In this document: positions 2,335 through 4,218 of the stretch, piece by piece
How positions within the stretch are numbered: the first letter of the stretch is position 1
Layout of the letters: each line of letters begins with the position of its first letter
Source of the DNA: Escherichia phage Qbeta
Length of the DNA stretch: 4,218 nt
Strand: one strand, 5' to 3'
Sequence record: FJ483840.1
Notes under the pieces: generated by a model
What the model was told of the DNA's origin: nothing
The model's input: the letters and a program-made list of their open reading frames with translations, nothing else
Database searches by the model: none
Position numbers and translations under genes: made by a program

Positions 2335-2348
2335 TAACTAAGGATGAA

Positions 2349-2368
2349 ATGCATGTCTAAGACAGCAT
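2349..2368 (+). promoter_or_regulatory. Coat-protein translational operator hairpin containing the replicase initiation codon
   Basis: AUGCAUGUC-UAA-GACAGCAU forms an 8-bp stem (2349..2357 paired with 2361..2368) with a bulged A at 2353 and a 3-nt UAA loop. The replicase AUG (2353..2355) lies in the 5' arm. This matches the known Qβ operator that coat-protein dimers bind to repress replicase translation. Confidence 0.88.
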
Positions 2369-4122
2369 CTTCGCATAACTCTCTTAGCGCACAATTGCGC
2401 CGAGCTGCGAACACAAGAATTGAGGTAGAAGGTAACCTCGCACTTTCCATTGCCAACGATTTACTATTGGCTTATGGTCAATCGCCATTTAACTCTGAAG
2501 CTGAGTGTATTTCACTCAGTCCGAGATTCGACGGGACCCCGGATGACTTTAGGATAAATTATCTTAAAGCCGAGGTCATGTCGAAGTATGACGATTTCAG
2601 CCTAGGTATTGATACCGAAGCTGCTGCCTGGGAAAAGTTCCTGGCAGCAGAGGCTGAATGTGCTTTAACGAACGCTCGTCTCTATAGGCCTGACTACAGT
2701 GAGGATTTCAATTTCTCACTGGGCGAGTCATGTATTCACATGGCTCGTAGAAAAATAGCCAAGTTAATAGGAGACGCTCCGTCCGTTGAGGGTATGTTGC
2801 GTCACTGCCGTTTTTCCGGTGGTGCCACAACAACGAATAACCGTTCGTACGGTCATCCGTCCTTCAAGTTTGCGCTTCCACAAGCGTGTACGCCTCGGGC
2901 TTTGAAATATGTTTTAGCTCTTAGAGCTTCTACACATTTCGATATCAGAATTTCTGATATTAGCCCTTTTAATAAAGCAGTTACTGTACCTAAGAACAGT
3001 AAAACCGATCGTTGTATTGCTATCGAGCCTGGCTGGAATATGTTTTTTCAACTAGGCATCGGTGGCATTCTACGCGATCGGTTGCGTTGCTGGGGTATCG
3101 ATCTGAATGATCAGACGATAAATCAGCGCCGCGCTCACGAAGGCTCCGTTACTAATAATTTAGCAACGGTTGATCTCTCAGCGGCAAGCGATTCTATATC
3201 TCTTGCTCTCTGTGAGCTCTTACTGCCCCCAGGCTGGTTTGAGGTCCTTATGGACCTCAGATCACCTAAAGGGCGGTTGCCTGACGGTAGTGTTGTTACC
3301 TATGAGAAGATTTCCTCTATGGGTAACGGATACACATTCGAGCTTGAGTCGCTTATCTTTGCTTCTCTTGCTCGTTCCGTTTGTGAGATACTGGACTTAG
3401 ACTCATCTGAGGTCACTGTCTACGGAGACGATATTATCTTACCGTCCTGTGCAGTCCCTGCCCTTCGGGAAGTCTTTAAGTATGTTGGTTTTACAACCAA
3501 TACTAAAAAGACTTTTTCCGAGGGGCCGTTCAGAGAGTCGTGCGGTAAGCACTACTATTCTGGCGTAGATGTTACTCCCTTCTACATACGTCACCGTATA
3601 GTGACCCCTGCCGATTTAATACTGGTTTTGAATAACCTATATCGGTGGGCCACGATTGATGGCGTATGGGATCCTAGGGCCCATCCCGTGTACCTCAAGT
3701 ATCGTAAGTTGCTGCCTAAACAGCTGCAACGTAATACTATACCTGATGGTTACGGTGATGGGGCCCTCGTCGGATCGGTCCTGATCAATCCTTTCGCGAA
3801 AAACCGCGGGTGGATCCGGTACGTACCGGTGATCACGGACCATACAAGGGACCGAGAGCGCGCTGAGTTAGGGTCGTATCTTTACGACCTCTTCTCGCGT
3901 TGTCTCCCGGAAAGTAACGATGGGTTGCCTCTAAGGGGTCCGTCGAGTTGCGATTCTGTAAATCTGTCTGCTGTCGATCAACTTATCTGTAGGAGCAATC
4001 CTACAAAGATAAGTAGATCTACTGGCAAGTTCGATATACAGTATATCGCGTGCAGTAGCCGTGTTCTGGCACCCTACGGGGTCTTCCAGGGCACGAAGGT
4101 TACATCTCTACACGAGGTGTAA
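2353..4122 (+). CDS. rep: RNA-directed RNA polymerase, replicase beta subunit (catalytic subunit)
   Basis: AUG at 2353 to the TAA at 4120..4122 encodes 589 aa (MSKTASSHNSLSAQLRRAANTRIEVEGNLALSIANDLLLAYGQ...). The canonical RdRp catalytic motif YGDD is at 3421..3432 (VTVYGDDIILPS). An AAGGA Shine-Dalgarno-like element lies at 2340..2344. I recognise the protein as the Qβ replicase. The track ORF starts at an in-frame AUG at 2344 (MKC-) that overlaps the SD; 2353 is the accepted start. Confidence 0.95.
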   Translation: MSKTASSHNSLSAQLRRAANTRIEVEGNLALSIANDLLLAYGQSPFNSEAECISLSPRFDGTPDDFRINYLKAEVMSKYDDFSLGIDTEAAAWEKFLAAEAECALTNARLYRPDYSEDFNFSLGESCIHMARRKIAKLIGDAPSVEGMLRHCRFSGGATTTNNRSYGHPSFKFALPQACTPRALKYVLALRASTHFDIRISDISPFNKAVTVPKNSKTDRCIAIEPGWNMFFQLGIGGILRDRLRCWGIDLNDQTINQRRAHEGSVTNNLATVDLSAASDSISLALCELLLPPGWFEVLMDLRSPKGRLPDGSVVTYEKISSMGNGYTFELESLIFASLARSVCEILDLDSSEVTVYGDDIILPSCAVPALREVFKYVGFTTNTKKTFSEGPFRESCGKHYYSGVDVTPFYIRHRIVTPADLILVLNNLYRWATIDGVWDPRAHPVYLKYRKLLPKQLQRNTIPDGYGDGALVGSVLINPFAKNRGWIRYVPVITDHTRDRERAELGSYLYDLFSRCLPESNDGLPLRGPSSCDSVNLSAVDQLICRSNPTKISRSTGKFDIQYIACSSRVLAPYGVFQGTKVTSLHEV

Positions 4123-4218
4123 CCTGGGAGGGCGCCAATATGGCGCCTAATTGTGAATAAATTATCACAATTACTCTTACGAGTGAGAGAGGGATCTGCT
4201 TTGCCCTCTCTCCTCCCA
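4123..4218 (+). promoter_or_regulatory. 3' untranslated region with three stem-loops and terminal CCCA (replicase recognition and initiation region)
   Basis: Hairpin 1: GGCGCC (4131..4136) / GGCGCC (4142..4147), loop AAUAU. Hairpin 2: UAAUUGUGA (4148..4156) / UCACAAUUA (4165..4173), 8-nt A/U-rich loop. Hairpin 3: GAGAGAGGG (4185..4193) / CCCUCUCUC (4204..4212), 10-nt loop AUCUGCUUUG. The genome ends ...CUCCCA-3', the hallmark 3' terminus of Qβ-type phage RNA. Confidence 0.85.

Follow-up and report, generated by a model that had tools for sequence, protein, structure and literature searches.

A complement of the 3'-terminal hairpin loop in the replicase gene of a Qβ-like phage very probably corresponds to the known long-range replication pseudoknot of Qβ

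Introduction

Does a short complementarity between the replicase gene and the 3'-terminal hairpin of an RNA phage genome reflect a functional RNA-RNA contact and, if so, is it one that has already been described? The question arises for Escherichia phage Qbeta sequence record FJ483840.1, in which a few nucleotides in the loop of the last hairpin (U1) are complementary to a segment far upstream. A pseudoknot between the U1 loop and a site ~1200 nt upstream was reported for Qβ by Klovins and van Duin (1999, J Mol Biol 294:875), and is presented as essential for Qβ replication in the passage on that phage in PMC3561173. The latter paper, by Rumnieks and Tars (2012), describes the Qβ interaction explicitly. 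An initial annotation of FJ483840.1, made from the sequence alone, had proposed that the complementarity corresponds to this interaction, and had warned that a match of seven nucleotides could easily arise by chance. In this study, we examined the two segments with respect to their uniqueness, position, predicted structure and conservation among alloleviviruses. Throughout, "the window" is the whole stretch of DNA that was analyzed, 4218 nt in length, and positions are those of the window unless stated otherwise.

Results

A Qβ-like allolevivirus genome

The window spans the whole genome of a Qβ-like allolevivirus (Qubevirus durum), with four genes as in Qβ. Its open reading frames matched the maturation (A2), coat/read-through (A1) and replicase genes, in the gene order of Qβ. 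Qβ strain HL4-9 (FJ483841) aligned with the window end to end, over 100% of its length, at 95.8% nucleotide identity. Qβ Anc(P1) (AB971354) was 95.6% identical, and further Qβ isolates likewise aligned end to end; strains BR12, VK and BZ1 were 92% identical to the window, and M11 and MX1 ~75%. As 95.8% was the top identity in the phage collection, the window represents a distinct Qβ-like strain and not a copy of a deposited genome. At the two strands of interest here, window numbering is that of AB971354 plus one. The replicase gene occupies positions 2353–4122. There is an in-frame ATG 9 nt 5' of its annotated start at 2353 (window 2344–2352), and this is why the mechanically called replicase open reading frame has 592 amino acids versus 589 in Qβ records.

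For comparative analyses, the window was combined with 13 further allolevivirus genomes (Qβ Anc, HL4-9, BR12, VK, BZ1, FrMerlot, M11, MX1, SP, NL95 and three FI strains), giving a set of 14 in which the group IV phages include SP and NL95. IMG/VR held only distant relatives, with replicase identities of 49% or less on contigs without authentic 3' termini, and one degenerate-pattern scan of JGI metagenomes returned four contigs, none of them a Qubevirus. Two JGI contigs that match the degenerate pattern (L101 at 1609–1640 and L102 at 12031–12062) encode GNTVVTVPKNSKS, a sequence similar to the replicase motif NKAVTVPKNSKT, probably by chance; at 49 and 58 kb these contigs are evidently not ssRNA phages.

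The 3'-terminal hairpin and its loop

The fold of the last 100 nt of the window had a z-score of -7.7 relative to shuffles and gave the following features:

4185–4212, plus strand: 3'-terminal hairpin U1, with a stem of 4185–4193/4204–4212 and a 10-nt loop at 4194–4203, AUCUGCUUUG (MFE fold).
4125–4130, plus strand: partner of the 3'-terminal CUCCCA in the pairing by which the 3'-UTR domain is closed (MFE fold).
4213–4218, plus strand: 3' terminus CUCCCA, where minus-strand synthesis starts (sequence and fold).

A pairing equivalent to that of 4125–4130 has been reported in the cryo-EM model of Qβ, at residues 4124–4129 (PMC8880383), and initiation at the 3' CCA has been described (PMC10610835). 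Across the alloleviviruses, two pairs in the U1 stem had changes on both sides. The core of the loop, CUGCUUU(G), was invariant in 13 allolevivirus 3' ends save for a single base in HL4-9. Position 4194 is A in the Qβ-like strains, which have the 10-nt loop, and C in M11, MX1 and all group IV phages.

U1 also has a role in the virion. In cryo-EM structures of Qβ virions, the maturation protein binds U1 and the tip of the hairpin is remodeled, and mutations in U1 abolish infectivity through loss of the maturation protein (PMC8880383). At least two constraints thus act on the U1 loop, and the pseudoknot probably belongs to the RNA that is replicating, not to the packaged RNA.

Complementarity of the loop with the replicase gene

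The heptamer AAAGCAG occurs once on the plus strand of the window, at 2974–2980, and its exact reverse complement, CUGCUUU, also occurs once, at 4196–4202, within the 10-nt loop that the fold placed at 4194–4203. On both points the initial annotation was accurate. A wobble pair, U2973·G4203, lengthens the pairing to eight contiguous pairs (seven Watson-Crick and one U·G) between two strands:

2973–2980, plus strand: upstream strand of the pseudoknot, UAAAGCAG, in the replicase gene (unique match, eight pairs with 4196–4203).
4196–4203, plus strand: downstream strand of the pseudoknot, CUGCUUUG, within the U1 loop (unique match, fold, eight pairs).

In M11, MX1 and the group IV phages, the C at 4194 can pair with G4203, producing an 8-nt loop and competing with the eighth (U·G) pair. 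It is therefore the seven Watson-Crick pairs that make up the conserved core, with the eighth being secure in the Qβ-like strains only.

To what extent might such a match be expected by chance? When the upstream 4184 nt were shuffled with dinucleotide composition preserved (n = 2000), a Watson-Crick complement to the loop of at least 7 nt was present somewhere in 38% of shuffles, as the caution attached to the original heptamer had rightly anticipated. In only 2.4% of shuffles did a complement of that length lie no more than 100 nt from the real position in either direction. In the window genome AAAGCAG was the sole Watson-Crick complement to the U1 loop of at least 7 nt, the runner-up being a 6-nt match at 2646–2651, and the region 1000–1500 nt upstream contained no other Watson-Crick complement to the loop of at least 6 nt. 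A scan in which G·U pairs were allowed was uninformative, as the U/G-rich loop then matched dozens of sites and 99% of shuffles reached eight pairs. The complementarity by itself is not beyond chance, and its weight comes from position and conservation.

The duplex energy of the 2973–2980 site, -8.9 kcal/mol, ranked second genome-wide, behind a G·U-containing site at 1454–1465 (CACAAGCGGGUG, -9.0 kcal/mol). The U1 loop might then be thought to contact a different upstream partner, either 1454–1465 or 2419–2430 (nine pairs including G·U), with 2973–2980 being kept for some other structure. In duplex energy, these sites match or come close to the flagged one; however, both depend on several G·U pairs and lie ~2730 and ~1766 nt upstream, respectively, compared with the published ~1200 nt. 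Neither is among the invariant runs of the replicase gene, unlike 2971–2981, with the qualification that 1454–1465 is in the coat gene and so lies outside that comparison. We regard a contact with either of these sites in place of 2973–2980 as extremely improbable.

Correspondence with the published Qβ pseudoknot

The distance from the loop to the 2973–2980 site in the window is 1216 nt. Because of this distance, and because no other complement of at least 6 nt is present at 1000–1500 nt, the site maps unambiguously to the published interaction, and the match in position on which the initial annotation had placed its weight is borne out by the sole complement in range. Alignment to Qβ gave the same answer, in that both strands are base-for-base identical to those of Qβ AB971354 (2972–2979 and 4195–4202) and of X14764. 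The upstream strand also lies ~105 nt past the M-site, which in Qβ spans 2545–2867. The abstract of the 1999 study reportedly describes how a single-stranded sequence between domains, situated 1200 nt upstream, interacts with 8 nt of the loop in the 3'-terminal hairpin. The eight pairs found here, and the predicted linker in which the upstream strand resides (see below), agree with that description. There is no structural difference from the Qβ pseudoknot; what differs is that the window is a distinct strain, known here from its sequence.

Based on these data, we are highly confident that the flagged complementarity is the published long-range replication pseudoknot of Qβ in a Qβ-like strain, as matched to the published description rather than to its coordinates. 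Rfam covariance models had no matches in the whole window up to E = 1, and a literature search with the sequence string returned unrelated papers only.

Conservation of the upstream strand

Positions 2973–2980 consist of the last base of the codon for Asn207, the codons for Lys208 and Ala209, and the first base of that for Val210, with the flagged heptamer lying in the Lys208, Ala209 and Val210 codons. None of the eight positions varied among the 14 alloleviviruses, not even 2973, 2976 and 2979, which are synonymous. The eight positions lie within AAUAAAGCAGU (2971–2981), an 11-nt segment that ties for the longest invariant nucleotide run of the replicase gene in the 14 alloleviviruses, a gene in which 39% of nucleotide columns were invariant. 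Conservation of protein sequence did not commonly extend to the codons: for the 256 replicase codons with an invariant degenerate amino acid, the codon was also invariant in just 15% (22% where degeneracy is two-fold, 12% where it is four-fold). The Asn-Lys-Ala codons at 2971–2979 were all invariant, forming one of only three runs of at least three invariant codons in the 589 codons of the gene. This silent-site invariance supports a constraint on 2973–2980 that would act at the level of RNA.

We considered and rejected the possibility that an overlapping gene imposes the silent-site constraint, as no open reading frame of at least 60 amino acids besides the replicase overlaps 2971–2981.

The other longest invariant runs of the replicase gene in the same 14 genomes are UGGGAUCCUAG and CUCGUCGGAU, at 3667–3677 and 3766–3775. 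GAUCC at 3670–3674 is complementary to GGAUC at 3772–3776, and a conserved RNA helix may exist there.

Covariation and variants of the pseudoknot strands

The initial annotation had looked to covariation across allolevivirus genomes as a further check. In the 13 complete allolevivirus 3' ends, there was no covariation in the pseudoknot. Pairing potential of the eight pairs was retained in 98.8% of cells, and seven of the eight pairs never varied. As both strands are invariant, this test was uninformative, that is, silent rather than negative.

Two variants affect individual pairs. Qβ clone KC137662, from a population mutagenized with 5-azacytidine, has the substitution U2973C and thus a C-G pair in place of U·G. 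The loop of HL4-9 reads CUGCUUAG rather than CUGCUUUG (its position 4205 is window 4202), leaving A2974 in an A·A mismatch. The upstream strand of HL4-9 has no compensating change, and such a change would make a stop codon. The mismatch may be a tolerated defect or variant of an end pair, or an error in sequencing of the 3' end. Unless it is a sequencing error, it sits uneasily with a strict need for every pair.

These observations bear on whether the two segments are conserved for separate reasons and never pair. By such an account, the U1 loop would be kept for the maturation protein A2 and/or for recognition by the replicase, and AAUAAAGCAGU would be kept for coding or as a single-stranded A/U-rich site bound by a host factor, S1 or Hfq. 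In keeping with it are the frequency of 7-nt loop complements in shuffled sequences, the pseudoknot's having no covariation, the mismatch that HL4-9, a natural isolate, tolerates, the A/U-rich and predicted single-stranded character of the upstream site, and the demonstrated binding of the maturation protein to U1 in virions, where loss of that protein is how U1 mutations abolish infectivity (PMC8880383). However, coding cannot explain why three consecutive synonymous positions are invariant, given that comparable codons vary in 85% of cases, and the match in position has a probability of ~2%. The dual constraint on the loop, for its part, does not account for the silent-site invariance of the upstream strand, and that invariance still points to pairing. 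Moreover, in the 1999 experiments of Klovins and van Duin, single mismatches reportedly abolished replication, and second-site changes that restored pairing are said to have rescued it. Considering, in addition, that the section of PMC3561173 on Qβ reports the pairing as essential for replication, we judge it very unlikely that the complementarity is a coincidence, and favor pairing of 2973–2980 with the U1 loop.

The predicted linker and adjacent long-range helix

Folding of positions 2853–4218 by partition function placed the upstream strand in an unpaired segment next to a long-range helix, with the following features:

2967–2979, plus strand: predicted single-stranded inter-domain linker, UUUUAAUAAAGCA, which carries the upstream pseudoknot strand (unpaired in the MFE fold).
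2980–2989, plus strand: 5' strand of the long-range helix, GUUACUGUAC, which pairs with 4050–4059 in the MFE folds of the window and Qβ.
4050–4059, plus strand: 3' strand of the long-range helix, GUGCAGUAGC (MFE folds of the window and Qβ).

The linker was unpaired between a helix of 2897–2901/2962–2966 and the helix starting at 2980, and it was also unpaired in the fold of Qβ AB971354. The unpaired probability was 0.69–1.0 for 2973–2979, and only 5% of the 8-mers of the fold were equally accessible. Thermodynamic folds of the group IV phages SP and NL95 did not leave the site cleanly unpaired, and the M11 fold was also less clean, as is expected of long-range thermodynamic predictions.

The predicted helix of 2980–2989/4050–4059 closes a domain of ~1.07 kb that covers most of the replicase gene. 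It lies immediately next to the pseudoknot strand, and either of the two could include G2980. Covariation was observed in this helix between group III and group IV phages, with U2982-A4057 replaced by C-G and A2988-U4051 by U·G. M11, MX1, HL4-9 and clones with A2983G also had one-sided changes in it that keep pairing. The A2983G clones (KC137649 and KC137675) are from 5-azacytidine-mutagenized Qβ, and their substitution changes Thr210 to Ala and the A-U pair of the helix to G·U; it is the documented AZC-adaptive substitution A2982G (PMC3556134).

Based on its position and span, the helix is probably the domain-closing interaction described by Klovins, Berzins and van Duin (RNA, 1998). That interaction in Qβ closes a domain of ~1000 nt in the replicase gene and bridges the M-site region and the 3' end, compared with a span of ~1070 nt for the helix in the window. 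Unlike the pseudoknot, the helix is nested, and the two probably work together.

Discussion

How would a replicase bound far from the 3' end of its template begin synthesis there? In the mechanism proposed for Qβ, the replicase holoenzyme would be anchored at the M-site via ribosomal protein S1, and the U1 loop, CUGCUUUG at 4196–4203, would pair with UAAAGCAG at 2973–2980 in the single-stranded linker a short distance downstream from the M-site. The pseudoknot, together with the helix of 2980/81–2989 with 4050–4058/59, would fold the 3' untranslated domain back onto the site that anchors the replicase. The 3'-terminal CCA would thereby be held near the active site, allowing minus-strand synthesis to begin. 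For the window strain, we infer the same positioning mechanism from its sequence identity with Qβ.

A similar arrangement is found in tombusviruses, eukaryotic plus-strand RNA viruses whose replication is regulated by long-range contacts of the 3' end and in which, as in Qβ, pairing over a kilobase range brings the site of 3' initiation to a replicase bound within the RNA. There is no relationship between the viruses, their sequences or their host factors, and the likeness is one of analogy only.

Closer comparisons are available in other ssRNA phages. The Qβ site and the proposals for other ssRNA phages have in common a conserved UGCUU-type loop in the 3'-terminal hairpin, with a complement ~1200–1300 nt upstream within the replicase gene. 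In phage M, the proposed partner is AGCAA, ~1215 nt upstream of the U1 loop UUGCU, and is experimentally unverified (Rumnieks and Tars, 2012, PMC3561173). Searching for Watson-Crick complements of each phage's own U1 loop, we noted matches of 5–7 nt in MS2 (2211–2216), GA (2199–2205), PP7 (2320–2325) and M (2168–2172). Those of MS2, GA and PP7 fall at one column of the replicase alignment (193/194), with sequences that differ between genera: CAAGCA in MS2 (from 2211) and CAAGCAA in GA (from 2199) versus the loop sequence UGCUUG, and CUGAGC in PP7 (from 2320) versus GCUCAG. Relative to the position that is homologous to the Qβ site, the candidate partners in MS2, GA, PP7 and M are ~50–60 codons upstream, and nothing comparable was present at that replicase column in AP205 or PRR1. 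The MS2, GA and PP7 candidates are hints of a relocated, covarying pseudoknot.

A broader scheme can be put together from these elements, which we offer tentatively and consider possible but rather doubtful as a whole. In this scheme, the U1 loop would have two states, being paired to 2973–2980 when the RNA is competent for replication, and bound by the maturation protein, with its tip remodeled, in the virion; in addition, a functionally equivalent pseudoknot, relocated and covarying, would be present across the Fiersviridae. If the two-state view of U1 is true, then binding of the maturation protein would compete with the pseudoknot and help to switch the genome from a template to packaged cargo.

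The element identified here is real but already known and characterized by experiment in Qβ, and its finding in the window is a rediscovery with no new biology. The additions of our study are modest, namely that the silent-site constraint has been quantified and that the neighboring long-range helix was found to covary while the pseudoknot does not. The result is useful for annotation, and the design of Qβ-derived replicons should avoid silent changes at 2973–2980 or changes in the U1 loop. The element explains how the Qβ replicase, anchored ~1.4 kb from the 3' end, finds its initiation site, and it is a textbook case of a long-range RNA structure controlling viral replication.
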